This document shows, in pieces, positions 26,765 to 41,980 of a DNA stretch of 64,000 nt; position 1 is the stretch's first letter, and every line of letters begins with the position of its first letter. The stretch is from Gemmatimonadota bacterium. Its GTDB lineage: Bacteria; Gemmatimonadota; Gemmatimonadetes; Gemmatimonadales; GWC2-71-9. The DNA lies in assembly GCA_036679645.1 (NCBI GenBank), contig JAZDCY010000056.1, forward strand, positions 75,911 through 139,910, in the 5' to 3' direction. The position numbers and the translations under genes are program-made. Below the pieces are notes generated by a model. That model was given only the letters and a program-made list of their open reading frames with translations. It did no database searches and was not told the origin of the DNA.

Positions 26765-27283
26765 ATGAACGACGATACTCGACATCCGACACCGCCCGGC
26801 GATACGCCGGCGCTGGACAGACTGCTGGCCGGCCTGGGGCGGCTGAGCCCCGGACGCGGCTTCGAGCAGAAGGTGCTGGCGCTCGTCCGCATCCCGCTGC
26901 CCAAATGGGCCTGGCGAATCCGTGAGACGTTTCGCGGGCTCACCTCAGGTCCTCGGGGCTGGGTCATTCTGGGAACGCTGTCGCTGGCAACCGCGACGGC
27001 GTGGTTCGGCACTGCGGCTTTTGCCTTCCGGTTTCGCCATGACGCGGAGCCGTACGTAAGCAGAGGCAGTGACATCCTCACAAGAATCGTCGAGCCGGTC
27101 TGGGGCGAGATGCTCGCCCTTGGTGCGGCTCAGCGTGATGCCTTTGGCAACTCCGTCACGAACGCGTTCGGGGGATTGGGAGTCTCCTGGCCGGTGCTCG
27201 CAATCGGCTACGGCGTGCTCGTCGTGGTCAGCGCGATCGGCCTCAGGCTCCTCATGAACCGGCACGCCAAGGTGGATGGTTAA
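26765..27283 (+). CDS. membrane protein downstream of the ECF sigma (possible anti-sigma, unproven)
   Basis: 172 aa with two hydrophobic segments (WVILGTLSLATATAWFGTAAFAF and VSWPVLAIGYGVLVVSAIGL). No zf-HC2 motif seen. Confidence 0.55.
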   Translation: MNDDTRHPTPPGDTPALDRLLAGLGRLSPGRGFEQKVLALVRIPLPKWAWRIRETFRGLTSGPRGWVILGTLSLATATAWFGTAAFAFRFRHDAEPYVSRGSDILTRIVEPVWGEMLALGAAQRDAFGNSVTNAFGGLGVSWPVLAIGYGVLVVVSAIGLRLLMNRHAKVDG

Positions 27284-28605
27284 CACTATGTGGCATAACA
27301 CTTTTCGTGGGTTCGTCGGCCTCGCGGCGGTTGCCGTTGTGGCTCCATCTGCGGCTGCGCAACGCGCCGAGGTCGTGGGATACTCCCTCTCGACATCGTC
27401 CCGGGAAGCGCTCCTCACCTTCCATCTGACCGATGGAGCGACGCTGCCGGTCGGCCTTGTCGGCGGTACGGTGCGGATCGGCGAGGCCGCCGTGGGCGGC
27501 TACTCCCCTGGCGGGCAGCTCGAGTCTCAGTGGCGTGCCTTCCTGAATCAGTCCGCGGTCCTGTCGACCGCCGAGCTAATCGCGGCGGTCCACGAATGGG
27601 CGCCGGATGGTCTGGGCGATGGCGACCGGGAATCTGCCGGGATGCTGCGCGAGCTGTTCGTCCAGCTCCAGGCGGCCGCGATTACCACCCGGTTTCCGGC
27701 GGTCCCGCCCGTCCCGCAGATAGCCGGTGTTGGCAAAGTCAACCCGGCGATGGCGGGGGAAATCGCTGACGATGTGGTTGTCGCGACCGAGCTGGCAACT
27801 CGCATTGCAGAGGCGGTCGCTGGGGCGAGCGAAGCCCGCGAGCGCGCGTCGGGGGCCAGGGCGCTGCGCGACCGGATTCGCAACACGGTGCGGACGCGCG
27901 TGCGCGGCAATACGCGGGATCGGGTTCAGCTTACATTCGGCGACCACGAGTCCCGGTCGGTCGGGGCCGTCGGACCCGTCGAAGCCGCCTGGCATGGGCT
28001 GCTTGGCGTCCTGGGAACGTTCGTGGCCCTGATGGGTGTGGGCTTTGGCGTGAGCTTCTTTGCCGACCGGCAGCTAGACGTCATGGCGGACACGGTGCAG
28101 AACTCGTTTGGCCGGTCGTTCTATGCTGGTGGGACTCACGCTCACCGTGATCGGCGTCCTGGTCATACCGATGGCGATAATAGCGTTCGTCGCCGCTCTG
28201 GCCGCTGCCGTCGCCGGCGGGTATCTGGCCGTCGCCCGGGTCGCCGGGGCCAAGTTCCTGTCCCGGAAACAACAGGACTACGGGGTCGAGGGTGCTGGCA
28301 TGTTGCGGTCCCTCGCCTACGGCGTCGGCATCCTCCTGGCCATCTGGCTCCCAGCCGTGCTCCTGGGGTCGGCACCGGTTGCCGGATCGATCCTGACATG
28401 GACTGCCGTTGCAGCCACGTGGGGACTGGCCACGACGGGCTTTGGCGCCGCCATTCTGACGCGCGGTGGTCTGCGCGGCACCTTTGGACAGCGGTTCGCG
28501 CCGCATGCAATCGCCCCCGATCACGTCTTCGCCGAACCTCTCGAAGACCCGCTGGCGACCAAGGTCGACACGGCCGAGTGGCTGGCAGAGGGAAGCCGGA
28601 AGTGA
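27276..28605 (+). pseudogene. secreted/multi-TM membrane protein with an apparent frame change near 28078..28125 (pseudogene or sequencing error)
   Basis: Frame 0 (27276 onward) reads as a signal peptide plus a sensible domain up to ...VSFFADRQLDVMADTVQNSFGRSF, then becomes Arg-rich nonsense. The next frame (ORF 28108..28605) continues with plausible TM helices MLVGLTLTVIGVLVIPMAIIAFVAALAAAV. That frame has a TAG at 28075-77. Confidence 0.5.
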
Positions 28606-29456
28606 GACGCCGCATCACGTTGCTGGCCAGCCTGGCCGTGCTTGCGACGGCTGGCTTGGCAAGCGCGCAGTCCTACCGCACGGTCGTGGAGTCACGACAG
28701 ATGAGTGGTGAGCGAGACCTGAGTGTGAGCATCGGGTTCGCGGTTGGGCACATCCTGGTCGCACCCGCGCAGGGCCGCGAGCTTTACCGGCTCTCGATGG
28801 TCTACGACGAGGATTTCTTCCGACCCGATGTCCGGTACCGTGAGTCTCGCAACCGGCTCCGGGCCGAGCTCGAGTCGCTCGGTCGGCACGGTCGCCAGGA
28901 CGCAGATCTGGACCAGCAGATCGACCTCGTCATCTCGCCATCGGTAGCGCTGGATCTGCATCTCAAGTTCGGCGCAGCGGAAGCGGATCTCGAGCTGGGC
29001 GGTCTGTCGCTCACGGAGGGACATATCGAGACCGGTGCGAGCGAAACAACCGTTCGCTTCTCCGCACCCAACCGCGCCGTCTGCGAGTCACTGCGATTTG
29101 AGGTCGGTGCCGCAGAGTTTGAAGCGCTGAATCTCGCAAACGCCCGCTGTCGCCTTATCAAGCTCTCCGCAGGCCTGGCTGAGATACTGCTCGACTTCAC
29201 CGGTGAGTGGAGTGACGCGATCGAGACCAAGGTGGACATCGAGATGGGGTTGGGTGAGGTCCGACTGCGCTTCCCCGAAGACCTCGGCGTCCGGATCCGG
29301 GTCGATCGGTTTCTCGTCAGCGTCGATCGCAACGGCTTCGACAAGCGCGGCTCGACCTACACGTCGCGCAACTGGGACGACGTGACTACACACATCGAGA
29401 TCGATATCGAGGCCGCACTCGGTAGCGTCGAAGTGGAGTGGGTGCCCAACCGGTAG
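28602..29456 (+). CDS. secreted repetitive beta-strand protein, function unknown (possible LiaF-C/toast-rack-like fold)
   Basis: GTG at 28602 (GTGA overlap) gives VRRRITLLASLAVLATAGLASAQ, a signal peptide. It is followed by repeated D/E-alternating strands (ALDLHLKFGAAEADLELG, VDIEMGLGEVRLRF, IEIDIEAALGSVEVEW). This is the last third of the 726-aa track ORF. Confidence 0.55.
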   Translation: MRRRITLLASLAVLATAGLASAQSYRTVVESRQMSGERDLSVSIGFAVGHILVAPAQGRELYRLSMVYDEDFFRPDVRYRESRNRLRAELESLGRHGRQDADLDQQIDLVISPSVALDLHLKFGAAEADLELGGLSLTEGHIETGASETTVRFSAPNRAVCESLRFEVGAAEFEALNLANARCRLIKLSAGLAEILLDFTGEWSDAIETKVDIEMGLGEVRLRFPEDLGVRIRVDRFLVSVDRNGFDKRGSTYTSRNWDDVTTHIEIDIEAALGSVEVEWVPNR

Positions 29457-29542: not shown

Positions 29543-30526
29543 ATGTCGGTCACGATTCGACGCGCGGGCCCCGCCGATGCGGCAGCCCTGACGGCGATCG
29601 CCCTTGCGGCGAAATCACACTGGGGATACCCCGACGCCTGGCTCGCAGAGTGGCGACCGCAACTCACGCTCGCTCCCGACTACGTAACCCGTAATCCGGT
29701 GTTCGTCCTCGAAGAGTCACGGGAACCGGTCGGATTCTGCGCCCTCGCGCGTGAACCGGAACATTGGCTACTCGATCACCTGTGGGTGTCTCCCGCCGCG
29801 CACGGTCGTGGGTACGGACGCGCGCTGTTTCGACATGCCGTTTCGTACGCCGCCGCTGAAGCACCTGCGCTCGCGGTCCGCATCGAGTCCGATCCAAACG
29901 CCGAAGCGTTCTACGCCCACATGGGCGCACGGCGCACTAGCACCCACCCAGGGCCAGTGTGCGGACTGCCGCGCGAACTCCCCGTCCTCATCTATGAGAC
30001 CCAAATGATCATTTCACGACCCGCTCCCGACGAGTACGCCCCCTACTACGGCGGCTACATCGACCAGGTACCGGACGGTGACGTCTTGGACCTGTTGCAA
30101 CACCAGATCGGGCAGACGACCGACCTCATCTCGGGCGTAGCACCTGAGCGCGGCACATATCGTTATGCGCCGGAGAAATGGTGCCTCAACGACGTCCTCG
30201 GGCACCTTTGCGACACCGAGCGCGTTTTCACCTATCGGGCACTCCGCTTCAGCCGCGGCGATGCACAGGCACTGCCCGGCATGGAGCAAGACGACTACGT
30301 GACCGGAGCGAACTTCGCGGACCGCTCGACGGCGGACCTGCTGGAAGAACTCCAAACGGTTCGTGCCGCGACCATCACACTTTTGCGTTCGCTGACGCCC
30401 GAGATGCTCGCGCGGCGGGGCACGGCAAGCGATTGCCAGTTCACGGCCCGCGCCATTGCCTATGTCATTGCGGGACACGAGCGACATCATGTGCAGGTGC
30501 TCCGCGAACGCTACCTCGAACGCTGA
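29543..30526 (+). CDS. GNAT acetyltransferase fused to a DinB-family (DinB_2-like) domain
   Basis: The N-terminal ~155 aa are GNAT (HLWVSPAAHGRGYGRALFRHAV). The C-terminal ~170 aa are DinB-like (WCLNDVLGHLCDTERVF...IAGHERHHVQVL). It is a single ORF with no internal stop. Confidence 0.75.
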   Translation: MSVTIRRAGPADAAALTAIALAAKSHWGYPDAWLAEWRPQLTLAPDYVTRNPVFVLEESREPVGFCALAREPEHWLLDHLWVSPAAHGRGYGRALFRHAVSYAAAEAPALAVRIESDPNAEAFYAHMGARRTSTHPGPVCGLPRELPVLIYETQMIISRPAPDEYAPYYGGYIDQVPDGDVLDLLQHQIGQTTDLISGVAPERGTYRYAPEKWCLNDVLGHLCDTERVFTYRALRFSRGDAQALPGMEQDDYVTGANFADRSTADLLEELQTVRAATITLLRSLTPEMLARRGTASDCQFTARAIAYVIAGHERHHVQVLRERYLER

Positions 30527-30551
30527 ACGCCGAACCAAGGGAAGCCAACCC

Positions 30552-31733
30552 ATGGCGCAACTCCATCCGGGATCAAAGGATCGGCGTGCTCATGTCCGGC
30601 GTTGGGGCTGGACGCTCGCTGCGGGAGCGTTCGCCTGCGGGCCTTCGCTGGTTCCGACAGTGCCGGCCCCGGTGGTTCTTGCTGGAGCAATCGAGCACTC
30701 GGTCTTCTTCATCGGCGATGCCGGCGCTCCGGCCGTGCCCACCGATCCGGTCCTGATCGCCCTCCGCGCCGCGGCATCCGAGCACCCGGAGCGGAACAGC
30801 ATCGTATTTCTCGGAGACAACGTGTACCCCATGGGGATGCCGGTGCGGGACGATCCGTCCCGGCAGGAATCGGAGCGGCGGCTCCAGGCACAGATCGATG
30901 CCGTGCCGCAGGGCGCCCGGGGCATCTTCGTCATGGGGAACCACGACTGGATTCGCGGCCGCGAGGGCGGGTTGGCAGCCGTTCGGCGCCAACTGGCCTA
31001 CATCGCCGATGCCGGCCGACCACTCGTCGTTGCGGCACCGACCGGTGGCTGCCCCGGGCCCGCGGTGATCGACGTCAGCGCGCGACTGCGCCTGGTGATG
31101 CTCGGCACCCAATGGTGGCTCCACGGGAGCGAGCGGCCCTCCGACCCGGCCTCCGCGTGCATCGCCGACTCGGAAGCGGAGGTCACCGACTCGCTCCGCA
31201 CCGTCGTGCAAGCAGGTCCCGATCGCATCGTCTTGGTCGCCGGACACCACCCTTTGCGCTCAGGCGGGGTGCACGGCGGCAAGTTCGACTGGAAGGACCA
31301 CATCTTCCCGCTGCGAGTCTGGAAGTCGTGGCTCTGGTTACCGCTTCCGATTATCGGGTCGCTGTATCCGCTGGTGCGGGGATCTGGCTTCTCGGCGCAG
31401 GACCTGGGCTCGGGACGCTACCAGACGATGCGGGACTCGATCGTCGCCGCCTTTGGCAGCCATCCGCCGCTTGCGTATGCAGCGGGGCACGAGCACAATC
31501 TGCAGGTTCTGGACGGCATGGGAGCTCGCTATCTCCTCGTATCGGGAGCCGGCATCTACGATCACCTCAGCCAGGCATTCCGACTCGAGGGTTCACTGTA
31601 CGCGCGGGCCGCGAGCGGTTTCATCCGCATCGATCTCCTCCGAGATGGACGCGTTCGCCTCGCGGTGCTCTTGGCGGATGGAGACGGCCGGTTGACCGAG
31701 GATTTCTCGATGTGGCTGGAGGAGAACCGATGA
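30552..31733 (+). CDS. secreted calcineurin-like metallophosphoesterase
   Basis: ATG at 30552 with a hydrophobic N-terminus WTLAAGAFACGPS. Motifs: FFIGDAG, VFLGDNVYPMG, VMGNHDW, VAGHHPL, AAGHEHNLQV. Confidence 0.8.
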   Translation: MAQLHPGSKDRRAHVRRWGWTLAAGAFACGPSLVPTVPAPVVLAGAIEHSVFFIGDAGAPAVPTDPVLIALRAAASEHPERNSIVFLGDNVYPMGMPVRDDPSRQESERRLQAQIDAVPQGARGIFVMGNHDWIRGREGGLAAVRRQLAYIADAGRPLVVAAPTGGCPGPAVIDVSARLRLVMLGTQWWLHGSERPSDPASACIADSEAEVTDSLRTVVQAGPDRIVLVAGHHPLRSGGVHGGKFDWKDHIFPLRVWKSWLWLPLPIIGSLYPLVRGSGFSAQDLGSGRYQTMRDSIVAAFGSHPPLAYAAGHEHNLQVLDGMGARYLLVSGAGIYDHLSQAFRLEGSLYARAASGFIRIDLLRDGRVRLAVLLADGDGRLTEDFSMWLEENR

Positions 31734-34282
31734 GACGCAAGGTACCCGGCACGGCGCTCCTGTTGGCAGCCGTCTCAGTCGCGGGTCCCTCATCGACGCA
31801 TGCACAACAGCGCGATAGCGTCCGGATCGCGGCCGGCTCCCAATACGATGCAGGTGGGTTCCACCGCCTCCTGTTCGGCGGTGATTATCGCGACCTGTGG
31901 CGTACCCCGATCTCTGTGCTCATGCTCGACCTGGATACGGCGAGCGGCGGCCTCACACCGACGACCGCAGGTGGAGGATTCCAGACGAAGTCCCTGCGCT
32001 TCCGCGACGCGAACGGGTTCCTCTATGGATTTCGGTCGGTGGACAAGGACCCCGCCGTCCTGCCGGACGAGTTGGCCGGAACCTTCGTCGAGGACCTCGT
32101 ACGGGACCAGACAAGCTCGGCCCATCCTGCCGGCTCCGGAATCGTTCCACCGTTATTGGAGGCGGTGGGCATTCTCCACACGGAGCCCCGGCTCGTCGTC
32201 CTCCCCGACGACCCCAGGCTCGGTGTGTTCCGGGAACGCTTTGCCGGGACGTTGGGCTATTTCGAGCTGCGTGGAATTGTGGAACCCGGCGCGCAACGGT
32301 TCGCCAACGCGCTAGAGATTCTCGACAGCGACGACGTATACCCAATGGTGCGGCAGAGCCCGGCACATCGTATTGACACCCGCCAGTTTCTCACAGCACG
32401 GCTCATCGATCTCTTGATCGGCGATTGGGATCGTCACCGGGGCCAGTGGGGCTGGGCGCGCTTCGATGACGCAACCGTCACCTATTGGACTCCCATACCC
32501 GAGGACCGCGATCAGGCCTTTGCGCGCTTCGACGGCCTGTTCCTGTCGCTGGGACGGGCAGCGGCCCCGCAGCTCGTGAACTTCGGCGATGACTATCCCA
32601 ACATGGTGGGCCTCACGTGGAACGGGCGGGAGAGCGACCGGTGGTTTCTCGTCCAGCTGGAAAAATCCGTGTGGGATTCGGTGGCTGCCGCGGTGCAGGC
32701 GCGAATCACGGACGCGGTCATCGACGCCGCGGTCGCGGGCATGCCCGTCGAGTATCAGGCAATCGACGGCGACCGCATGCGCCGGGCGTTGCGCGCGCGC
32801 CGCGACAAACTGCTCGAGGCAACCGACCGGTTCTACCGCGTGATCGTGGGAGAGGTTGACCTCCACGCAACGGAGGCGGCGGAGTTCGTAACGATCGACC
32901 GACATGCCGACGGCAATGTGACCGTCGAGATCACCGAGCGTCGTCCCGGCGCAACTCCCTGGCTCCGCCGCACGTTCGACGCGAGCGAGACCAGCGAAAT
33001 ACGGCTCTATCTCTATGGCGGCAACGATCGCGTCGTCGTGCGCGGGGACGGGCGAGGCATTGGCTTGCGGATCATCGGAGGTGGGAGCGACGAGGTGGTG
33101 GATTCCTCGCGTGCCGGCGGCGTCAGGTTCTATGCGACGGGGGTCGATCGCACGAGTGGGCCCACCGGGGTGCAGGTGGACCGCCGCGTGTACACGCCAC
33201 CAGCCAAACGGTTCGAGAGGGAACTGCCGCCACGCGATTGGGGCCACCGCTGGATGCCGGTGCTCTGGGCCGGTGGCGGGCCCGACATCGGTGCATTCGC
33301 GGGATTCGGCGCGTTTGTAACTCGGTGGGGATTCCGCAAGCTGCCGTACACATATCGGATTCGCGTACGCGGTGGCTACGCCACGGCAGCAAGGGCATTC
33401 CGGACCGACCTGCTCGCGACGTTCTATCGCATGAATTCCCGGATCCACGGTGACGTGTACGTCCGTGCGTCCGGAATCGAGGTGCTACGCTTCCACGGTC
33501 TAGGAAACGAGACGCAGCTCGACCGCCCGGATGATTTTTACCGTGTCACCCAGGACCAATACACTATCCAGCCGACGGTCACCGTTCCGCTGGGAACCCC
33601 CGCGACAATCACGTTCGGGCCTCTCGCGACCATCAGCGATACCGAGGCGCAACCGAACCGGATCATCGATTCACTCCAATCACTCCAACCGTTATACGGG
33701 GCCGGACACTTCAGTCAGGTCGGATGGCAGACTAGCGTGAGGTTCGATACCCGGGACGTCGCGGCCGCGGCTTCGCGGGGGGTAGCCATCGACGTTGGCG
33801 GCTCGGTCTACCCCGAGCTGCTCGACGTGGTAACGACCTTTGGTGAGGCCCACGCCACGGCATCGACATATCTCTCCGTCGGTGGCCCGGGCGCGCCCGC
33901 AGCAACGCTTGCCCTCCGCGCCGGTGGAAAGAAAGTCTGGGGAACTTTCCCCTTCCACGAGGCCGCTTTCATAGGAGATGACGCGACGGTGCGCCTGGGC
34001 CGCCAAAATCGTTTCGGCGGTGACGCCGCCGCGTGGGGCAACGCGGAACTCCGGCTGCGGGTGGCAAAGATCTCCTTTCCCTTGCCGGGCCATTTCGGCC
34101 TGCTAGGCCTCGCGGACGCCGGACGCGTGTTCCTCGAGGGCGAATCGTCGGACGACTGGCATACGGCGTTCGGAGGCGGCATCTGGTTTTCCTTCCTCCA
34201 ACCGTCGAATACCATAAGCGCGGCGGTTGCGCACAATAGTGAAGACGTGCGGTTGTATGTACGGGCCGGGTTTGCTTACTGA
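31730..34282 (+). CDS. signal peptide + kinase-like (PI3/4K-like motif) region + Omp85/surface-antigen-type C-terminal beta-barrel
   Basis: ATG at 31730 (ATGA overlap with the phosphoesterase stop). Signal peptide: MRRKVPGTALLLAAVSVAGPSSTHAQ. Kinase-like motifs: LIDLLIGDWDRHRGQW and IPEDRDQAF. The C-terminus (FGGDAAAWGNAELRLRV...LADAGRVF...GGGIWFSF...RLYVRAGFAY) resembles an Omp85 barrel. The ORF-track start at 30602 is an out-of-frame overlap with the upstream gene. Confidence 0.7.
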   Translation: MRRKVPGTALLLAAVSVAGPSSTHAQQRDSVRIAAGSQYDAGGFHRLLFGGDYRDLWRTPISVLMLDLDTASGGLTPTTAGGGFQTKSLRFRDANGFLYGFRSVDKDPAVLPDELAGTFVEDLVRDQTSSAHPAGSGIVPPLLEAVGILHTEPRLVVLPDDPRLGVFRERFAGTLGYFELRGIVEPGAQRFANALEILDSDDVYPMVRQSPAHRIDTRQFLTARLIDLLIGDWDRHRGQWGWARFDDATVTYWTPIPEDRDQAFARFDGLFLSLGRAAAPQLVNFGDDYPNMVGLTWNGRESDRWFLVQLEKSVWDSVAAAVQARITDAVIDAAVAGMPVEYQAIDGDRMRRALRARRDKLLEATDRFYRVIVGEVDLHATEAAEFVTIDRHADGNVTVEITERRPGATPWLRRTFDASETSEIRLYLYGGNDRVVVRGDGRGIGLRIIGGGSDEVVDSSRAGGVRFYATGVDRTSGPTGVQVDRRVYTPPAKRFERELPPRDWGHRWMPVLWAGGGPDIGAFAGFGAFVTRWGFRKLPYTYRIRVRGGYATAARAFRTDLLATFYRMNSRIHGDVYVRASGIEVLRFHGLGNETQLDRPDDFYRVTQDQYTIQPTVTVPLGTPATITFGPLATISDTEAQPNRIIDSLQSLQPLYGAGHFSQVGWQTSVRFDTRDVAAAASRGVAIDVGGSVYPELLDVVTTFGEAHATASTYLSVGGPGAPAATLALRAGGKKVWGTFPFHEAAFIGDDATVRLGRQNRFGGDAAAWGNAELRLRVAKISFPLPGHFGLLGLADAGRVFLEGESSDDWHTAFGGGIWFSFLQPSNTISAAVAHNSEDVRLYVRAGFAY

Positions 34283-34354: not shown

Positions 34355-35987
34355 GTGGAGGTAGTGAGCGACCGGGTCCGACCACTCACCACGACATCCA
34401 CCAGCCAGCGCAGTTCCAGCGCGTGGACGTGGAGTCTGGCGTCGCTGCCACCGGATCTTCTCGAGCAATCGTGCAAGCGGATTGCCATCGTCGCGATGGT
34501 CTTTGCGGGGCTCTGGATGCTCCCTCTGGTTCTCAACCCGGTTGCGCTCCGATTCGCACCCGATGACCCGTTCGTGGCAGGCGCCGCGTGGCCCATGCCC
34601 GGCAGGTTAATCGCGGGACTCGGGCTCCTGCTGTCGCTGGGAATGGTCTTCGTGGCGGCCAAGCTGCACCCCGCACCCTCCGTGCTGTTGAACACTGGGC
34701 TCGGATTCGAGGTCGCAACGGCCCTGCTGATCGGGATTCTCAATCAGTGGCAGCCCGTCCTCGTTCCCGGCCGTGCCTCCTGGATATGCATCATCATTCT
34801 GATCTATCCCGCGATCGTACCCAATACACCCACCAAGACGTTCATCGCCGCGTTTGCTGCCGCGTCGATGGACCCGCTCGGGTTCGGGATTGCCATGGCG
34901 CGCGGCGCCGTCCCCGCGGGTGAATTCACCGCCTTCACCGCCCTGTGGTATTTCCTCCCGGCGTACCTGTGTGCGGCCCTTGCAGTAGTTCCGGTACACA
35001 TCATCCGGAAGCTCGGGCGACAGGTCAGCAAGGCCCGGGAGCTGGGCAGCTACCGCCTCGGCGAATCGATTGGGACAGGCGGGATGGGAGACGTCTACCG
35101 GGCGGAACATCGGCTGCTGGCACGACCAGCCGCGATCAAGCTGATTCGCCCCGCGCTCCTTTCCACAAGCCGCCGGGAGGCGACGGTGATCCTCGAGCGA
35201 TTCCGCCGCGAGGCCGAGGCGGCGGCGCTGTTGCGCTCCCCGCATACCATCGAACTCTACGATTTCGGCGTGGCCGAGGAAGGGACGTTCTACCTGGTAA
35301 TGGAGCTACTCGATGGACTCAGTTTCGAGGTGCTAGTCGAGCGATTCGGCCCGGTTCCGCCAGAACGCGCGGTGTATCTCATGCTCCAGGCCTGTGCCTC
35401 CCTGGCCGAAGCACATTCCACTGGTCTGATGCATCGTGACATCAAGCCATCCAATATCTTTACCAACCGTCTCGGGCTCGAGGTCGATTTCGTCAAAGTG
35501 CTCGATTTTGGCCTGGTCAAGGCAGACCCCGGAAACGGGGTCGAGCAATCGGACCGGCACGCCGGCGTTCATGGCGCCGGAGGTCGCGCTCGGCGAGGAG
35601 ACCGCCGACCACCGCCTCGACGTATACTCGCTTGGGGCGGTACTCTATTGGATGCTCACCGGTCAGCTTATCTTCGAGGCATCCAATCCGATCAAGATGA
35701 TGCACCGACACATTAGAGACCAGCCGACGCCACCGTCGCAACGTACGGAACTCGACATACCACCCGAGCTCGACGACCTCGTCATGGCGTGTCTCGCGAA
35801 AGACCCTGAAGCGCGACCCGCGAACGCCGCGGCACTCGCCCATGCACTCGCCGAGATCGAGTTCCAAGAGCCGTGGACCACTGAGCGGGCGGAGCGTTGG
35901 TGGGATATGCACGTTCCAGACTGCATGACCGCCGGCGGCCCGTGCGACCAGGGAACGCTGGTACCTGCGTTGTCAGTCGCCGGGTAG
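34355..35987 (+). pseudogene. membrane-anchored Ser/Thr protein kinase, frameshifted inside the activation segment (pseudogene or homopolymer error)
   Basis: ORF 34355..35716 carries about 6 TM helices, GTGGMGDVYRAEH, AAIKLI, HRDIKPSNIF and DFGLVKADP. ORF 35436..35987 continues ...TGTPAFMAPE...DVYSLGAVLYWMLTG...ACLAKDPEARP. The frames meet at a C4 run (35527-30) and a G4 run (35537-40). Confidence 0.75.
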
Positions 35988-35998
35988 TCTCCACGCAC

Positions 35999-37423
35999 AT
36001 GCGCCGCGCCCTCCGAACCACCGTCGGCCTTACGGCGCTCCTTCTCGCGGGTCGTATTCCGATCATCGCGGCACAAGAGGCCGACACGGCCCGGCTTCGG
36101 AACATTCTCGATCTCAGTACGTCCCTGGAGACGCTCTCCACTCGGATAGCCCCGGCCGTCGTGCAGATCTTCACGACCGCCCTGGGACCCGTCGCGCCGG
36201 GATCCGGCGCCCAGCGAGTGGGTCTCCAACGGCGAGGTGGTTCCGGTTTCGTCCTGACATCGGACGGGTATATCCTGACGAACGCCCATGTGGTAGCGGG
36301 AGCACGCTCAGTACAGGTCCTGCTCGCACAGGCTGCCGCGCCCGATGCGCCCGGTCGGTCCGTCATACGGCCGGGGGGAAAGCGAGTGACCGGTACGGTT
36401 GTGGGGGCCGATTCAGAAACGGACTTGGCGCTCATCAAGATAGATGAGACCAATCTGCCGTTTCTCCAGTTTGGCGATTCGGACGAACTGGGCCCCGGGA
36501 ACCTCGTACTCGCCTTCGGAAGCCCCCTTGGTTTGGAGACCTCGATCAGTCTAGGCATCGTGAGCGCCGTGGGGCGGCAGCTGCGGCCGGAAAGCCCTAT
36601 GGTCTATATCCAGACAGATGCACCAATCAATCCTGGAAACAGCGGCGGTCCCCTCGTGGACACACGGGGACGTGTCATTGGCATCAACACGCTGATCCTC
36701 TCGCAGTCGGGCGGCAGCGAAGGCGTGGGCTTCGCGGTACCAAGCAACATCGCACGGAGCGTCTACGGGCAGCTCCGCAGTGCCGGGCATGTACGCCGCG
36801 GTATCGTCGGAGCCAACGTGCAGACGATCGACGTGGTCATGGCGGACGCACTTCGCCTTACGCAGGATTGGGGCGCGATCGTGACCGATGTGTTTCCGCG
36901 TTCCCCCGCCCAACAGGCGGGGCTGCAGGTGGGTGACATCATCGTCTCCCTCGATGGAAAGCCCATGGAGAACGGGCGCCAGTTCGACGTCAACGTCTAT
37001 CAACGCGCCGCGGGCGACATCATCCGTCTCGACGTGCGGCGCAACCTCCAGCGGCTCTCCCTGCAGGTGCGCGTGGTTGAGCGCGACCGCGACCCGAATC
37101 GCTTCGCGGATATGGCTCGCTCCGAAGAAAATCTGGTGCGTCGGCTCGGCATACTGGCCCTCGACGTGACGCCGGCCATTGCACGGCAGATGCCCTGGCT
37201 GCGCATGCAGACCGGCGTCGTCGTGGCCGCGCTTGCCGCCGACGTTCCGCGCATCGAGACCGGTCTCCGGGCAGGTGATGTGATTCATGCCGCGAACGGC
37301 GCCGCGGTCACGTCGCTCGCGATGCTGGCGGCGTTCCTCAACCAGTTGGACGTGGGCGATGCGGTGGTGCTGCACGTCGGCCGGTTCGGACGTCTTCGGT
37401 TCGTTGCATTCCGCATCGAGTAG
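35999..37423 (+). CDS. DegP/HtrA-family periplasmic serine protease with two PDZ domains
   Basis: ATG at 35999 gives the signal peptide MRRALRTTVGLTALLLAG. Catalytic triad context: TNAHVV, DLALIK, GNSGGPLVD. Two PDZ-like regions follow. Confidence 0.9.
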   Translation: MRRALRTTVGLTALLLAGRIPIIAAQEADTARLRNILDLSTSLETLSTRIAPAVVQIFTTALGPVAPGSGAQRVGLQRRGGSGFVLTSDGYILTNAHVVAGARSVQVLLAQAAAPDAPGRSVIRPGGKRVTGTVVGADSETDLALIKIDETNLPFLQFGDSDELGPGNLVLAFGSPLGLETSISLGIVSAVGRQLRPESPMVYIQTDAPINPGNSGGPLVDTRGRVIGINTLILSQSGGSEGVGFAVPSNIARSVYGQLRSAGHVRRGIVGANVQTIDVVMADALRLTQDWGAIVTDVFPRSPAQQAGLQVGDIIVSLDGKPMENGRQFDVNVYQRAAGDIIRLDVRRNLQRLSLQVRVVERDRDPNRFADMARSEENLVRRLGILALDVTPAIARQMPWLRMQTGVVVAALAADVPRIETGLRAGDVIHAANGAAVTSLAMLAAFLNQLDVGDAVVLHVGRFGRLRFVAFRIE

Positions 37424-38819
37424 ACGCGCCCTGCGGTGCGCGTTCTCGACACTCCTGCTGTGTACGACATCAGGCGCGGCAACAGCCCAAACTCACGACG
37501 GTTCCGGCAACAGCTATTGGGGAACCATACCACCACCGCACGATTCGGTAAGCGCGGTATTCGCCAGCGGGCCACGCCCCGTCTGGGAAACCGTCTTGCT
37601 CGTCCCATACTGGATCATGGGACTCCCGCTACGACTCCTCGCGGTCGGCGTCGGGGAAGGTGTCGAGTCCCTCGACGAGTCGGGCATTGCCAGTACGGTG
37701 GGTGGCTGGCTGGGTCCACGCACCGGACCGTTCGGGGTCGTCGTCAGCGCGCGGGCCGGCGGATTGAGTGGCGTCGGAGGCGGAGTGGCCGTTGAGCACA
37801 CGGAGCTGTTCAATCGACCGGGTACCGCATTTCGCGGGCGGGTAGCCGGTACGTTCATCGGTGACTTTCGCGCGAGCGGCGCGGTGCGAGTCCCCTTCTC
37901 GGAACGCAGCCTGCTCGACGTGGGCACTGGGTATCGATTTCGCAACAGGGTTCGCTACTTCGGTATCGGGCCCGAGCGCGGCGCTGAGGACGAATCGATA
38001 TTCCGCCAACGTACATGGTGGCTGGGAGGCGAGGTCACCGGCGGCTGGGGAGATCAGATCACCGCGACCGCCAGCCTCGTGTTTACGAGTGTCAAGCCAC
38101 TCGACGCGCGTGAACAGGACCAGAACAGCGACGACCCGCCTATCACCGTACGCTACGCAGACTCCCTGCCACCTGGCTTTGGCGAGACCTCTAACGGCAT
38201 GGCTCTGGGGGCGGAGATCATGCACCAGGACGCGACGGATACTGGTAGGCCGATGAGTGGCGGTATCCGTCGTGCCATAGTCGGCTACTTTCGTGGGACC
38301 GGCGGCGAGACGACCGAGTTCTGGAACGTACGGGGAGAGCTGCAGCAGTTCGTGCCGCTGTGGTATCGACATCACGTACTCGCCCTTCGGCTGGCGACCT
38401 CGTGGATGCAGCAGATTGGCGACGCGCCCATTCCGTTCACTCGCCTCATCTCGAACGACGATCCGGACCTCCTGCGCGGCTTCGACGACTTTCGCTGGCG
38501 CGACCGTGGGCTCGCGGTGCTGTCAGCGGAGTACCGCTGGCCGTTGTGGGCGTATGAGCGTGCGCAAGGTGCGGGCCTCGACTTCTACCTGCTCACAGAT
38601 GTGGGACAGGTCTTCAGCGACTTCGACGACATCCGCGGAGAGAACCTGACATTCTCGTATGGCGCCGGCCTGCGACTCGTCACTGCAGCGGGCTTCGCGC
38701 TGCGCATCGAGTATGCGCTCAGCAACGAGGACGTGGCGTTCCGCCTGCGTGGCGATCAGATCTTCCAGACCTTCCGAGGGGCGCTCTACCATGGACGCGA
38801 ACCGAACCCCGCGCGCTAG
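37404..38819 (+). CDS. Omp85/surface-antigen-like outer-membrane beta-barrel protein
   Basis: Proposed TTG start at 37404 gives (M)HSASSRRALRCAFSTLLLCTTSGAATAQ, a signal peptide. The C-terminus LRGFDDFRWRDRGLAVLSAEYRWPL...LLTDVGQVF...FSYGAGLRLV...ALRIEYA is typical of Omp85-type barrels. The start codon is uncertain. Confidence 0.6.
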   Translation: MHSASSRRALRCAFSTLLLCTTSGAATAQTHDGSGNSYWGTIPPPHDSVSAVFASGPRPVWETVLLVPYWIMGLPLRLLAVGVGEGVESLDESGIASTVGGWLGPRTGPFGVVVSARAGGLSGVGGGVAVEHTELFNRPGTAFRGRVAGTFIGDFRASGAVRVPFSERSLLDVGTGYRFRNRVRYFGIGPERGAEDESIFRQRTWWLGGEVTGGWGDQITATASLVFTSVKPLDAREQDQNSDDPPITVRYADSLPPGFGETSNGMALGAEIMHQDATDTGRPMSGGIRRAIVGYFRGTGGETTEFWNVRGELQQFVPLWYRHHVLALRLATSWMQQIGDAPIPFTRLISNDDPDLLRGFDDFRWRDRGLAVLSAEYRWPLWAYERAQGAGLDFYLLTDVGQVFSDFDDIRGENLTFSYGAGLRLVTAAGFALRIEYALSNEDVAFRLRGDQIFQTFRGALYHGREPNPAR

Positions 38820-40473
38820 GCTCGTCTCGCTGGCTGCGGGCGCGCTCCTGGTTTCCGCTTCGGGAGCGCTGCTCACGCCGTTGCGCGACGCTCCCGTCGC
38901 GTGGTACGCGGATGATATGCGCAACATAGCGGAACCCGCGGAACGCGAGCCGCACATCGTCCGCGCGGCGATCGACGCCACGCTATTCAGGCCGTTCGGT
39001 CGCTTCTTCCATCCCGGGCGGCTTGTCCGTCGGGTCGGTACTGCATTTGGAGGAGATCATGTTCCGGCCGCGGCGAACCTCAATGCGCTGGACGAGGTCC
39101 CGAATTCGAGTTGGTTCACGAATCGCCTCGGGCTCTTCCCGAGCGCTCCCGCCGTCGCCGCGCGGGGCCCAGCGGTGGGTGAAGGTCCATCAGCCCCGTG
39201 GACGGTGATTCGCCCGAAGACGCAAGGTGTGACACCAGGGTTCGATATTCGGGACGCCAACGGACAGGTCTGGGTCATCAAGTTCGACGTTGCAGGATTC
39301 CCCTCGATGTCCACAGCCGCAGGGGTCATCGCGGGGCGGATCTTCCATGCGGCGGGGTACAACGTGCCTGACGATCGGGTCGTAACGTTCACGCGCGACC
39401 AGCTCCAGGTCTCGCCCGATGCCGAGATGCGCGAGGGTGACGACCGCCGTCAAATGACCCATGCCGATCTGGACGAGCTACTGGCGCGCGTGGAGCGCAA
39501 TCCGGACGGGAGCTGGCGCGCTCTCGCGAGCAGGTTCCTTTCCGGTACGCCGGTTGGGCGCTTCGACTGGCGAGGACGGAGGCGAGACGATCCCAACGAT
39601 CGGGTCAACCATGAGAACCGACGTGAGATTCGCGGTCTAGCGGTCTTCGCCGCGTGGCTCTGCCACTACGACACCAAGCAGGGGAACACGCTCGACATGT
39701 ACGTCGAGGAAGATGGGCGTCGCTTCGTCCGTCACTACCTCATCGACTTTGCCTCCACCCTTGGGGCGGGCGGGACCGGTCCCTTCCCCGCCGCCTGCTA
39801 CGAGTACTCATTCGATTTCGGTGCTTCGTTCCTCCGTGTCCTGTCACTGGGCGTCTACCAGGACCCCTGGCGGCGGCTCGAGCGTCCCGAGGGGCTCGAT
39901 GAGATTGGATACTACGAGAGCGAGGTCTTCTCCCCTCGCGGGTTCAAGCCACTCGAGCCGAACGCCGCCTTCGCCAATCTGACGGATCGGGATGGCTATT
40001 GGGCAGCGAAAATCATATCAGCGTTCACGGACGCGCACCTGGAAGCGATGGTTGCGGGGGGACGCTACCGCACGCCGGAGGCGGCGCGTTGGATGCGGCG
40101 CGTGCTGGCAGAGCGGCGCGACGAGATCGTGCGGTACTGGTTCAGCCGGGTACCACCGCTGGATTTCTTCACGTACCATGACGGGACAGTGCGATTTCAC
40201 GATCTCGGGACGAGAAGCGGGATCTTTTCGGGGTCCGAGACGCGTTACCGTCTGAGGGTGGCCTACGCGACGCCGACGCGCGACCTTGGTCCCACGACCG
40301 ACTGGCTCGAACTCGAGCGGACGGAGACGGCGCTCTCGCAGATCGCAATCCCGGGCACCCCGGAGCCGTTCATAGCGATCGAGACCCAGCTCACACGGGG
40401 GGCGCGCTGGAGCCATTCGGTGACCGTGTTCATCGCGGCCGCGAGCGGGCGCGTTGTTGCGCTCGAACGATAG
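38791..40473 (+). CDS. signal/anchor-bearing protein with protein-kinase-like motif set, function unknown
   Basis: ATG at 38791 gives MDANRTPRARLVSLAAGALLVSASGALL. It carries RDANGQVWVIKF (beta3-Lys-like), CHYDTKQGNTL (DxKxxN-like) and HYLIDFASTLG (DFG-like) in canonical order. It overlaps the barrel gene end by 29 nt. Confidence 0.55.
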   Translation: MDANRTPRARLVSLAAGALLVSASGALLTPLRDAPVAWYADDMRNIAEPAEREPHIVRAAIDATLFRPFGRFFHPGRLVRRVGTAFGGDHVPAAANLNALDEVPNSSWFTNRLGLFPSAPAVAARGPAVGEGPSAPWTVIRPKTQGVTPGFDIRDANGQVWVIKFDVAGFPSMSTAAGVIAGRIFHAAGYNVPDDRVVTFTRDQLQVSPDAEMREGDDRRQMTHADLDELLARVERNPDGSWRALASRFLSGTPVGRFDWRGRRRDDPNDRVNHENRREIRGLAVFAAWLCHYDTKQGNTLDMYVEEDGRRFVRHYLIDFASTLGAGGTGPFPAACYEYSFDFGASFLRVLSLGVYQDPWRRLERPEGLDEIGYYESEVFSPRGFKPLEPNAAFANLTDRDGYWAAKIISAFTDAHLEAMVAGGRYRTPEAARWMRRVLAERRDEIVRYWFSRVPPLDFFTYHDGTVRFHDLGTRSGIFSGSETRYRLRVAYATPTRDLGPTTDWLELERTETALSQIAIPGTPEPFIAIETQLTRGARWSHSVTVFIAAASGRVVALER

Positions 40474-40483
40474 GGAGAATCAG

Positions 40484-41980
40484 ATGGCTACGAACGCTTC
40501 GCGGGATGGCCAAGCAAGCGCCGTAGATCGTTTTCTGCGCCTGTTCACAGAGGTGCGGGGCGGCGAGAGCACGACGGCGCTGCTGCTCGCGCTCAATGTT
40601 TTCTTGTTCCTGATGGCCTACTCTGTCATAAAAGTGCTCCGAGAACCCCTCATCCTGGCCGGTGGGGGAGACACGCTGAGCGGCGCCCAGCTCAAGGCGT
40701 ACACGGCCGCCGGCTCGGTGTTGCTGTTGGCGGTCATCGTCCCCCTGTACGGGGAACTCGCCGGCCGCGTTCCCCGGCGCCGTTTGATCAATATCGTAAG
40801 TGCGATATTCGTGCTGGCGCTCGGCGGATTCTTCCTGCTGGCCCAAACCGGTCTTAGCGTCGGGATTCCCTTCTTCATCTTCGTCGCGATCTTCAGCGTG
40901 ATGATCATCGCCCAGTTCTGGGCGTTCGCGAACGACGTCTATACGGAAGAGGAAGGAAAACGCCTCTTCCCCATCGTGGGCTTTGGTATGTCGGCTGGAG
41001 CGATCGCCGGGGTGTCGGTTACAATAGCGCTCGAACCGCTGGGGCTCAACGTGCTCTTTCTCCTCTCGGCCGGGGTGCTCGTCCTGGCTACCGCGATGAC
41101 CAACCTGATCGACCACCGCGAGCGACGCCGCACCGAAGCAACCGTACCGGATGCCATGACGAGTGGATTCCTGCCGGCGGCGACGGGGCAGTTCCGTGCG
41201 GCGACGGGAGAACTCAAGGCCACCGCCGAGAGTGAGGAGTACCAACGTGAGACCGGCACCTTCCGGACGGTCAAGCCCGGACAATCCATCGAGGAGACCG
41301 AGAAGGAACAGATCGAAAGCACCGCGGGCGCCTTCGCCCTGGTCTTCCGCAACCGGTACCTGCTCCTCATAGCACTCCTGGTCATGCTACTGAACTGGGT
41401 CAACACGAACGGGGGGTTCTTCCTGGATGACTTCATCACGCGGAGCGCGGAAGCGACCGTGGCCGACAATCCCCAAAGCGACCTCAGCACGGGTGAAATC
41501 ATAGGTTCGTTCTACGCACGATTCTATTTGGTCGTGAACATCGCCACGCTCTTGATCCAGGGCTTTGCGGTATCGCGCATCATCAAGTACTTCGGTGCAC
41601 GAGGAGCGATCCTCTTTCTGCCGATCATCGCGCTTGGCGCGTACACGCTCGTGGCCTTCATCCCAGTGCTGGCCGTCGCACGGTGGGCCAAGACCGCGGA
41701 GAACAGTATCGATTACTCACTCAACAACACGGTGCGCAACGTGCTGTTCCTGCCGACGACGCGGGAGGAGAAGTACAAGGGCAAGCAGGTCACGGACGCC
41801 TTCTCCCAGCGCGCCGGCGATGTCCTGAGCTCCGCGACGGTGTTCGTGCTGACGGGCCTGCTGGGCTTTGGAGGAATCGCCCTCGTGTACCTCAACATCC
41901 CGCTGGTGATCATCTGGCTGATCATCGCGGTGGCACTCGGGCGCCGGTACGGACGCCTCGCGGCCGCAACGGGGACCTAG
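40484..41980 (+). CDS. TLC-family (ATP/ADP-translocase-like, Npt-type) transporter
   Basis: ATG at 40484 follows AGGGAGA. About 12 TM. The motif QFWAFANDVYTEEEGKRLFPIVGFGMSAG is typical of TLC/NTT proteins. Confidence 0.8.
   Translation: MATNASRDGQASAVDRFLRLFTEVRGGESTTALLLALNVFLFLMAYSVIKVLREPLILAGGGDTLSGAQLKAYTAAGSVLLLAVIVPLYGELAGRVPRRRLINIVSAIFVLALGGFFLLAQTGLSVGIPFFIFVAIFSVMIIAQFWAFANDVYTEEEGKRLFPIVGFGMSAGAIAGVSVTIALEPLGLNVLFLLSAGVLVLATAMTNLIDHRERRRTEATVPDAMTSGFLPAATGQFRAATGELKATAESEEYQRETGTFRTVKPGQSIEETEKEQIESTAGAFALVFRNRYLLLIALLVMLLNWVNTNGGFFLDDFITRSAEATVADNPQSDLSTGEIIGSFYARFYLVVNIATLLIQGFAVSRIIKYFGARGAILFLPIIALGAYTLVAFIPVLAVARWAKTAENSIDYSLNNTVRNVLFLPTTREEKYKGKQVTDAFSQRAGDVLSSATVFVLTGLLGFGGIALVYLNIPLVIIWLIIAVALGRRYGRLAAATGT

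Follow-up and report, generated by a model that had tools for sequence, protein, structure and literature searches.

We analyzed a 64,000-nucleotide stretch of DNA from a Gemmatimonadota bacterium (contig JAZDCY010000056.1; this whole stretch is the window in what follows) and, within it, a pair of adjoining genes for a phosphoesterase and for a protein with an outer-membrane barrel, the latter termed here the barrel gene. The coordinates are collected in Table 1. The product of the barrel gene starts with a signal peptide, which is followed by a protein-kinase-like (PKL) domain, an all-beta spacer and finally a 16-stranded Omp85 barrel that has no POTRA repeats. The barrel gene begins with an ATG (31730-31732) that overlaps the stop codon, TGA (31731-31733), of the Metallophos open reading frame (ORF) upstream of it, and the GGAGGAG that lies 5 nt on the 5' side of this ATG is a Shine-Dalgarno-like site. 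A preliminary description, made from the letters of this DNA, had the 850-aa product start inside the stop codon of the phosphoesterase gene, at the ATGA of 31730-33, and took the two genes to be translationally coupled. The start is borne out by the ORF call and the sequence. The coupling agrees with the overlap, with the Shine-Dalgarno-like site and with the close spacing of the two genes elsewhere: in 32 loci with a same-strand Metallophos gene upstream, the distance from its stop to the nearest in-frame start ranges from -47 to +16 nt, and eight of these loci have the 4-nt overlap.

Table 1. Features of the gene pair, of the barrel-gene product and of neighboring genes in the window.
Feature	Position	Strand	Detail and basis
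Lipoprotein metallophosphoesterase (Metallophos, PF00149)	30549-31733	+	Pfam, lipobox, match to fused proteins
Coupling junction	31718-31733	+	GGAGGAG 31718-31724, 5-nt spacer, ATGA 31730-31733
Barrel gene	31730-34282	+	850 aa and stop; ORF call; product without cysteine
Signal peptide, Sec-type	31730-31804	+	aa 1-25, MRRKVPGTALLLAAVSVAGPSSTHA followed by QQ; read from sequence; low predicted local distance difference test (pLDDT) in the model
PKL domain, HipA/CtkA/PI4K-II type	31817-32854	+	aa ~30-375; AlphaFold, Foldseek, PDB profile search
Gly-rich loop AGGGFQTKS	31967-31993	+	aa 80-88; collinear with HipA VAGAQEKT
K106 in RSVDKDP	32045-32047	+	end of predicted strand 98-106; counterpart HipA K181, HIIKLP
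Catalytic-loop motif GDWDRHRGQW	32420-32449	+	aa 231-240; HMMER alignment to CtkA 3akj
DFG-like metal-binding segment PEDRDQAF	32498-32521	+	aa 257-264; collinear with HipA and CtkA
All-beta spacer	32855-33214	+	aa 376-495; short regularly spaced strands, GGxD-type repeats; model
16-stranded Omp85 barrel	33245-34279	+	aa 506-850; Pfam and NCBIfam (below cut-off), AlphaFold model, Foldseek
Membrane Ser/Thr kinase	34355-35987	+	N-terminal hydrophobic region, then Pkinase; Pfam E 9e-24
TLC-family (ATP/ADP-transporter-like) protein of the major facilitator superfamily	40454-41980	+	PF03219, 45.6 bits (cut-off 21)
TLC-family transporter with C-terminal HEAT repeats	41977-44262	-	761 aa; Pfam; conserved neighbor of both kinase-like systems

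The GC-rich window holds many long spurious ORFs (for example 30602-34282, and 32312-33448 on the reverse strand), and this would speak for an artefact, namely an ORF that was mis-called or that is a chimera arising from an assembly error or read-through. We regard such an artefact as next to impossible. The full length is kept in more than 2800 proteins (homolog search at E ≤ 0.001) and in 321 species genomes, the structural model is confident across the whole chain, and an independent assembly carries the identical protein within the same phosphoesterase/barrel gene pair. The reading as an artefact was rejected, as conservation rules it out. The identical protein on record is P0001. A scan for promoters and terminators around the locus was uninformative in this GC-rich DNA.

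Among the best 120 of the more than 2800 homologs nearly all are full-length; 11 of them are 100-86% identical to the barrel-gene product and the others 50-66%. The N-terminal domain alone, searched against a representative library, drew 3244 clusters at 50% identity, the matches listed being close relatives. The best 80 of the 321 genomes belong mostly to Gemmatimonadota (Gemmatimonadales and Longimicrobiales), with some from Latescibacterota, Krumholzibacteriia and Vicinamibacteria. At their sources the homologs are named "hypothetical protein" or "BamA/TamA family outer membrane protein".

The structure of the full-length product was predicted with AlphaFold2 from an alignment built on 45 homologs (pLDDT 84.1; predicted template-modeling score, pTM, 0.81). 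The fold search with this model yielded barrel matches only, and hence a second model was built for the N-terminal domain alone (aa 27-380; pLDDT 79, pTM 0.82). The Foldseek search of the second model against the PDB gave kinases throughout its top matches. The best was CtkA (E 8.8e-7, probability 1.0, template-modeling score, TM, 0.40-0.52), followed by the bacterial Ser/Thr kinases 7vkb/7vkc, CotH, HipT, HipA, PI4K-II alpha (E 8.6e-4) and Fam20C. CtkA of H. pylori (3akj) was also the best match when the family profile was compared with all PDB sequences (E 0.03, then 0.01), and the HMMER alignment falls on the catalytic loop, where DTLLGNFDRHNGNWGFLR stands against DLLIGDWDRHRGQWTWARF. The corresponding segment of the barrel-gene product, LIGDWDRHRGQW, comprises aa 229-240 (nt ~32414-32449). 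The hhalign comparison of the N-domain profile with E. coli HipA, at a non-significant E of 0.75, placed the catalytic loop in the same register. For the N-terminal domain, no kinase or other family was matched by Pfam on the N-terminal 495 aa (E ≤ 10) and on the 45 homologs, or by NCBIfam; the HipA_C, HipA_2 and PI3_PI4_kinase profiles were likewise matched neither by the N-terminal 495 aa nor by the 45 homologs.

The motifs of the domain are collinear with those of HipA along the chain. The Gly-rich loop TTAGGGFQTK corresponds to HipA SVAGAQEK, RSVDK106DP to HIIK181LP, LIGDWD234RHRGQ to LIGATD309GHAKN, and TPIPED259RDQAF to TPFYD332IISAF, for which CtkA has PIYD179. By alignment, D234 is the counterpart of CtkA D155 and HipA D309, and H236 that of CtkA H157. 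D259 is collinear with HipA D332 and CtkA D179 in a register that is uncertain by one residue. K106 is presumably the equivalent of the nucleotide-binding lysine. As modeled, the domain has the bilobal protein-kinase-like fold of the HipA/CtkA-type enzymes, and it is a new and very divergent family in the HipA/CtkA/PI3-4K "DRH" clade, outside the existing Pfam families. The preliminary description had read a PI3/4-kinase/HipA-like domain fused to an Omp85 barrel, with the catalytic loop likened to GDRHxxN and the metal-binding loop to IDFG, and had called for profile searches and structure prediction. Both motifs stand where it placed them and, given their conservation in the homologs below, are no chance resemblance. 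Both kinds of analysis were run, and CtkA came out best in both; the fold search, the CtkA profile alignment and the collinearity with HipA agree with the kinase-like reading and with its motif assignments.

The same description regarded the site as degenerate or repurposed, on account of a replaced asparagine and an arginine at the beta-3 position, and proposed that homologs be aligned. We aligned 83 species-level homologs from GTDB genomes, 48-75% identical to the barrel-gene product. The residues T86, R102, K106, D126, D227, W233, D234, R235, H236, Q239 and W240 are identical in 83/83, and so are W253, D259, D261, D303, R304, R357 and R358. G231, D232 and R260 are conserved in 82/83. Within the Gly-rich loop, G82, G83, Q85 and T86 are kept in 81-83 of the 83 sequences, and position 87 is K or R in 67. 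The catalytic-type residues are thus strictly conserved. The arginine at the beta-3 position is indeed present and invariant (R102), and K106, which follows four residues later at the end of the same predicted strand, is likewise kept in all 83. The asparagine at the +5 position of the catalytic loop, a metal ligand, is indeed replaced, by Gln239, in each of the 83 sequences; one metagenome homolog, in alignment A2, has the asparagine (DRHRGNW). Because the catalytic Asp and His, the metal-binding Asp, K106 and the Gly-rich loop are invariant or nearly so (D234, H236, D259 and K106 among them), the view of a degenerate site does not hold. The exchange of Asn for Gln is fixed in the 83 homologs and recurs in fused proteins of Bacteroidota (described below), which argues for a conserved, working site. 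This pattern of residues fits a working active or ligand-binding site and not decay.

The C-terminal portion of the model has 16 strands (aa 506-846). Foldseek with the full-length model found BamA, TamA and Sam50 in the PDB (E 2.5e-11 to 1e-9), with a TM of ~0.6 to the barrel-only chains. NCBIfam NF047779 (Omp85 family) matched with an E of 3.8e-17, but its 62.9 bits lie under the cut-off of 200. Pfam PF01103 scored 23.2 bits, compared to a gathering score of 24, and it was matched at E ≤ 1 by 31 of the 45 homologs (best 1.8e-7). The model thus places the protein in Omp85, with a predicted transmembrane beta-barrel of the 16-stranded BamA type. The barrel contains an L6-like segment, TVRLGRQNRFGGD (nt 33986-34024), and a BamA-like LADAGRVF (nt 34109-34132), and alignment A1, made of 45 sequences, shows no variation at R755, R761, G764, D796 and G798. 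TVRLGR (with R755) and LADAGRVF (with D796 and G798) bear some resemblance to VRGF in loop 6 of BamA, where Omp85 proteins have (V/I)RG(F/Y), and to FFDAGNV in its DxG strand, a likeness of unaligned motifs. The protein closes on a C-terminal aromatic beta-signal, YVRAGFAY, for which the family consensus is AGFAF and in which Y843 and G847 are invariant. The preliminary description had likewise seen Omp85-like strand patterns with an end in RAGFAY. The model and the fold search sustain this assignment; the barrel is longer than the ~290 aa then proposed, at ~345 aa.

Between the PKL domain and the barrel, the segment of aa 376-505 is predicted to contain strands only and no helices. It is short, has GGxD-type repeats and looks like a beta-solenoid in the model. 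Since strands alone are incompatible with the beta-alpha-alpha-beta-beta fold of POTRA, the spacer is no POTRA domain. In Pfam, the N-terminal 495 aa matched nothing at E ≤ 10, and POTRA is absent from the 15 families that the 45 homologs matched at E ≤ 1. The earlier claim of a barrel without POTRA repeats, for which a search for such repeats had been advised, is upheld by these scans and by the strands-only spacer. The architecture had also been called unusual. It is so relative to the textbook Omp85 proteins, but it is not rare, for it belongs to a very large family as the split form of a described Omp85 subfamily, as follows.

The ORF of the phosphoesterase opens at TTG 30456, and the ATG at 30549 gives an N-terminus that reads RRWGWTLAAGAFAC, followed by GPS. 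Its lipobox is LAAGAFAC followed by GPS, with the cysteine at nt 30633-30635, and a lipobox is present in at least 38 of 44 phosphoesterase homologs. PF00149 matches with an E of 1.7e-5, above the gathering score, and among solved structures the purple acid phosphatases are the nearest relatives (E 0.002, a weak match). This phosphoesterase had been described as secreted. It is not simply secreted but a lipoprotein, to judge from its lipobox and those of its homologs. The neighbor counts out of 42, here and below, come from related loci with good flanks, which were screened for chosen marker proteins; a Metallophos homolog adjoins the barrel gene in 26 of the 42. A metallophosphoesterase of Riemerella from the literature was considered as a relative and rejected, being an unrelated effector of the type IX secretion system.

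The two genes of the window occur elsewhere as a single chain. A long match in the representative-library search, P0189 (1335 aa), has a lipobox, a Metallophos domain (aa 69-266), a kinase-like domain (aa 480-834) and an Omp85 barrel (aa 1084-1297) in one polypeptide, with a low-complexity linker between phosphoesterase and kinase-like domain and no second signal peptide. With P0189 as the query, 1541 proteins were found. Lengths among the best 120 are ~1180-1340 aa (~1180-1280 aa for the Bacteroidota proteins), and 116 of these cover 93-99% of P0189; they are 32-36% identical to it, barring four close relatives at 66-86%, and PF00149, PF01103 or both occur in most. Their names are "metallophosphoesterase", "Calcineurin-like phosphoesterase" or "BamA/TamA family". 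Proteins of this type are widespread in Bacteroidota, where their sources include Larkinella, Chitinophaga, Catalinimonas, Arcicella, Flammeovirgaceae and Cyclobacteriaceae. The kinase-like motifs are kept among the best 120 fused proteins (xDWDRHxxQW in 118, GGGxQT in 103 and PxDRDxAF in 95), and those of the barrel-gene product are kept in Bacteroidota proteins of 33-36% identity. One fused protein, P0397 of Larkinella arboricola, has an N-terminal domain to which the phosphoesterase of the window is 38% identical over 340 aa (E 2e-67).

In the survey of Heinz and Lithgow (2014; PMC4104836), PF00149 with an Omp85 barrel defines the "Metallo" Omp85 subfamily. The survey called PF00149 a metalloprotease and left a middle region of ~450 aa undescribed (PMC4104836). 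Because the fused proteins share the architecture of that subfamily and their domains are homologous to those encoded here, the gene pair of the window is, as judged from sequence, the split two-gene form of the Metallophos-PKL-Omp85 proteins. The homology extends across all constituent domains and includes the DWDRHxxQW, GGGxQT and PxDRDxAF motifs; the difference is that Metallophos and barrel are one polypeptide in the subfamily as described, whereas the window has a separate gene for each, linked through the ATGA overlap. The new element is that the whole "Metallo" subfamily contains a conserved kinase-like domain, the ~450-aa middle being this domain together with the beta spacer. Neither in Pfam or NCBIfam annotation nor in the literature searched was a kinase-like domain recognized on an Omp85 barrel. 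The subfamily is reinterpreted accordingly: the metalloprotease label is wrong, and the previously unannotated center of ~450 aa has gained an assignment. By species-level source names, the fused form seems to occur in cultured Bacteroidota (Larkinella, Chitinophaga, Arcicella), where the function proposed below could be put to the test if genetic tools exist.

Several known systems resemble the barrel-gene product in part. PlpD, a patatin-like Omp85 protein of type Vd, has its enzymatic N-terminal domain in the periplasm, as shown experimentally, and its barrel is probably a scaffold; it is a phospholipase, and its loss alters membrane lipids (PMC11116518). Both proteins place an enzyme domain N-terminal to a 16-stranded Omp85 barrel. 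PlpD, however, has a patatin lipase and one POTRA, whereas the product studied here lacks POTRA and has, besides the all-beta spacer, a kinase-like domain, so that of the patatin-POTRA-barrel set of type Vd it shares the barrel alone. CtkA, HipA and HipT are its best fold and profile matches, with a Gly-rich loop, Lys, D-x-H loop and metal-binding Asp that are collinear. It differs from them in being exported and membrane-anchored, in the Gln that replaces the loop Asn and in the lack of a match to HipA_C or HipA_2, and from HipA also in that neither HipB nor a toxin-antitoxin context is present at the locus. With BamA/TamA and the "noNterm" Omp85 proteins it has in common the 16-stranded barrel and the C-terminal aromatic signal, and perhaps the L6 Arg motif and the DxG motif. 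Unlike BamA/TamA, it is without POTRA, and nothing indicates a role in how outer-membrane proteins are assembled. The TpsB proteins are distinguished by two POTRA and a gene for cargo with a TPS domain; the product here has no POTRA, and its neighbor is the Metallophos lipoprotein and not a TpsA.

The surroundings of the gene pair recur as well, with at least one associated neighbor gene in 39 of the 42 loci. A DUF4956 membrane protein is adjacent in 11 of the 42 (it is absent from the window); a membrane Ser/Thr kinase is present in 10 of them, two TLC-family transporters in 9 and a phytase-like/SdiA-regulated beta-propeller in 8. The hydrophobic region of the Ser/Thr kinase is apparently multi-pass, as read from its sequence. 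Strong homologs of this kinase are found within ~5 kb of the barrel gene in about 20 related loci, mostly directly downstream, and homologs of the TLC-like protein of 40454-41980 neighbor it in 18 loci, Latescibacterota included. Kinase and TLC-like genes stay beside the barrel gene even where order or orientation has changed, in Latescibacterota and Krumholzibacteriia among others (L047, L053, L064, L066, L067). All nine TLC-like homologs that were tested pass the PF03219 gathering score (27-61 bits), and the match of the TLC-like proteins to the NTP/NDP-exchanger model TIGR00769 is weak. In Gram-positive Pel loci, DUF4956 stands beside a CotH kinase and a polyphosphate polymerase (10.1101/768473), and the loci described here are a second case in which DUF4956 accompanies an atypical kinase fold. 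The two settings have in common an extracytoplasmic atypical kinase fold and DUF4956, and CotH is among the fold matches; the kinase family is a different one. A polyphosphate polymerase gene was found in none of the three loci for which gene and Pfam tables were at hand (L001-L003); the markers for which the other loci were screened included no such enzyme.

Taken as a whole, these observations are best explained by an outer-membrane-anchored, periplasm-facing pair of a phosphotransferase and a phosphoesterase in the split "Metallo" form, a reading that we put at a probability of roughly 0.55. In 16-stranded Omp85 barrels both termini lie in the periplasm. Because this topology puts the N-terminal extension in the periplasm, and with PlpD as a precedent (PMC11116518), both enzyme modules would lie on the periplasmic side, at the inner surface of the outer membrane, with the barrel as membrane anchor or scaffold. 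The kinase-like domain would act on a substrate in the envelope by transferring a phosphoryl (or nucleotidyl) group to it. If HipA and CtkA are the guide, this substrate might be protein Ser/Thr; if PI4K-II and PlpD are, a lipid head group. The purple-acid-phosphatase-like lipoprotein would remove or process the phosphate. The phosphoryl donor would come from the cytoplasm, for which TLC-like transporters or DUF4956 proteins are hypothetical candidates. We infer the periplasmic orientation, the catalytic activity, the relation of writer and eraser, and the donor supply. Several observations weigh against this proposal. The TM-scores of the fold matches are modest (0.4-0.5), no Pfam or NCBIfam kinase model matches, the hhalign E for HipA is 0.75, and the Asn of the catalytic loop is Gln. 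The periplasm is generally held to be free of ATP, and this leaves the phosphoryl donor unexplained. Invariance of residues would equally be expected of a non-catalytic ligand-binding site. We consider unlikely a complete extracytoplasmic nucleotide-dependent system, in which phosphate on envelope proteins or lipids is written by a HipA-like kinase anchored in the outer membrane and erased by a lipoprotein phosphatase, while the neighboring TLC-family transporters, or DUF4956 in other lineages, deliver ATP or polyphosphate to the periplasm.

The replacement of the canonical Asn by Gln, the lack of a match to a kinase profile and the unexpectedness of ATP in the periplasm would also suit a pseudokinase scaffold. 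Here a non-catalytic domain would stand in for POTRA and offer the phosphoesterase or clients a place to dock, as the BAM lipoproteins dock on BamA, and phosphoester hydrolysis would be the sole chemistry. The partner is indeed a lipoprotein, like BamB-E. Typical of pseudokinases, however, is the loss of the catalytic Asp, of the Asp in DFG or of the Lys, and here all three are kept across phyla, together with the Gly-rich loop; on balance we hold the scaffold to be a possible but rather doubtful alternative. It gains from the description of other Omp85 proteins whose N-terminal domain is something else than POTRA, WD40 for instance (PMC4104836). A tentative reading that we rate as similarly doubtful keeps the two enzymes but directs them at lipids, with a PI4K-II-like lipid kinase acting on inner-leaflet outer-membrane lipids or lipopolysaccharide precursors and Metallophos as an LpxH-like lipid phosphoesterase. 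PI4K-II alpha is among the fold matches, as said, many invariant residues are Arg, anchoring on a barrel mirrors the PlpD phospholipase (PMC11116518), and one fused homolog is named LpxH by JGI. That name is an automatic annotation, however, and the best matches are the protein Ser/Thr kinases CtkA, HipT and HipA.

The barrel might instead be an export device of type V (PlpD/TpsB-like) that brings the kinase-like domain and/or the phosphoesterase to the cell surface, where they would scavenge phosphate or act on external targets. Weak ShlB/FhaC Pfam matches occur in three of the 45 homologs and in several fused relatives, the nearby phytase-like propellers and phosphatase suggest phosphate acquisition, and CtkA is called a cell-translocating kinase in the title of the PDB entries 3akj-3akl. 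We think this quite improbable, as the protein has no POTRA, TPS domain or helical linker, and PlpD, the one enzyme-Omp85 fusion with a determined topology, keeps its enzyme periplasmic (PMC11116518).

The family has thousands of members (in Gemmatimonadota, Bacteroidota, Latescibacterota and others) that bring together, at the outer membrane, a kinase fold with a strictly conserved site and a phosphatase. Omp85 proteins are known as machines of protein insertion or secretion, and HipA-like kinases as cytoplasmic toxins. The combination would mean either a regulated phosphorylation chemistry of the envelope or a new, non-kinase use of the kinase fold.

In part of the family, the phosphoesterase is accompanied by a 290-aa phytase-like/SdiA-regulated propeller and a 340-aa DUF4956 protein (L001, 4589-7705 on the reverse strand; L003, 4953-8013 on the forward strand; other loci). 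These genes either share an operon with the barrel gene or lie divergently to it, and some of the propellers have a lipobox. The Ser/Thr kinase downstream of the barrel gene is read in the window in two overlapping frames (34355-35716 and 35436-35987). It is one gene of 551 aa in the independent assembly (L086), and the two-frame reading is possibly due to a frameshift or an assembly error. It is followed by a periplasmic protease of the DegP/HtrA type (Trypsin_2 and two PDZ; 35897-37423, forward strand), which lies between the kinase and a second Omp85 barrel and is kept in L085 and L004.

This second barrel (37287-38819) opens a separate system on the forward strand, in which a secreted 560-aa protein (38791-40473) overlaps the barrel gene and is itself overlapped by the gene for the TLC-like protein. 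BLASTP gave no significant similarity between the two Omp85 barrels of the window. The 560-aa protein has more than 3200 homologs and no Pfam family. Invariant in it are the HxDxKQxN...DFAS and K164 motifs, the former of which point to a kinase-like family of its own. The possibility that it is a paralog of the PKL domain was considered and set aside, as homology is unproven (BLASTP/hhalign E 0.003-0.005, probability 7%): the two share a short helical motif only, TDxxI(D/E)AxV...RRDxL (hhalign E 0.005). The order Ser/Thr kinase, HtrA, Omp85, 560-aa protein and TLC/HEAT is kept in two distant genomes.

On the upstream side, a gene for a fusion of a GNAT acetyltransferase with a DinB-family protein (29543-30526, forward strand) ends 23 nt before the phosphoesterase gene, and its homologs are upstream of the barrel gene in four related loci (L004, L021, L023, L024). 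The 726-aa ORF that precedes it (27276-29456, forward strand) looks composite. Its middle is rich in Arg and Pro, as in out-of-frame GC-rich DNA, and the last ~100 aa alone match a family, the LiaF-like C-terminal domain, under the gathering score; the real gene there is probably much shorter.

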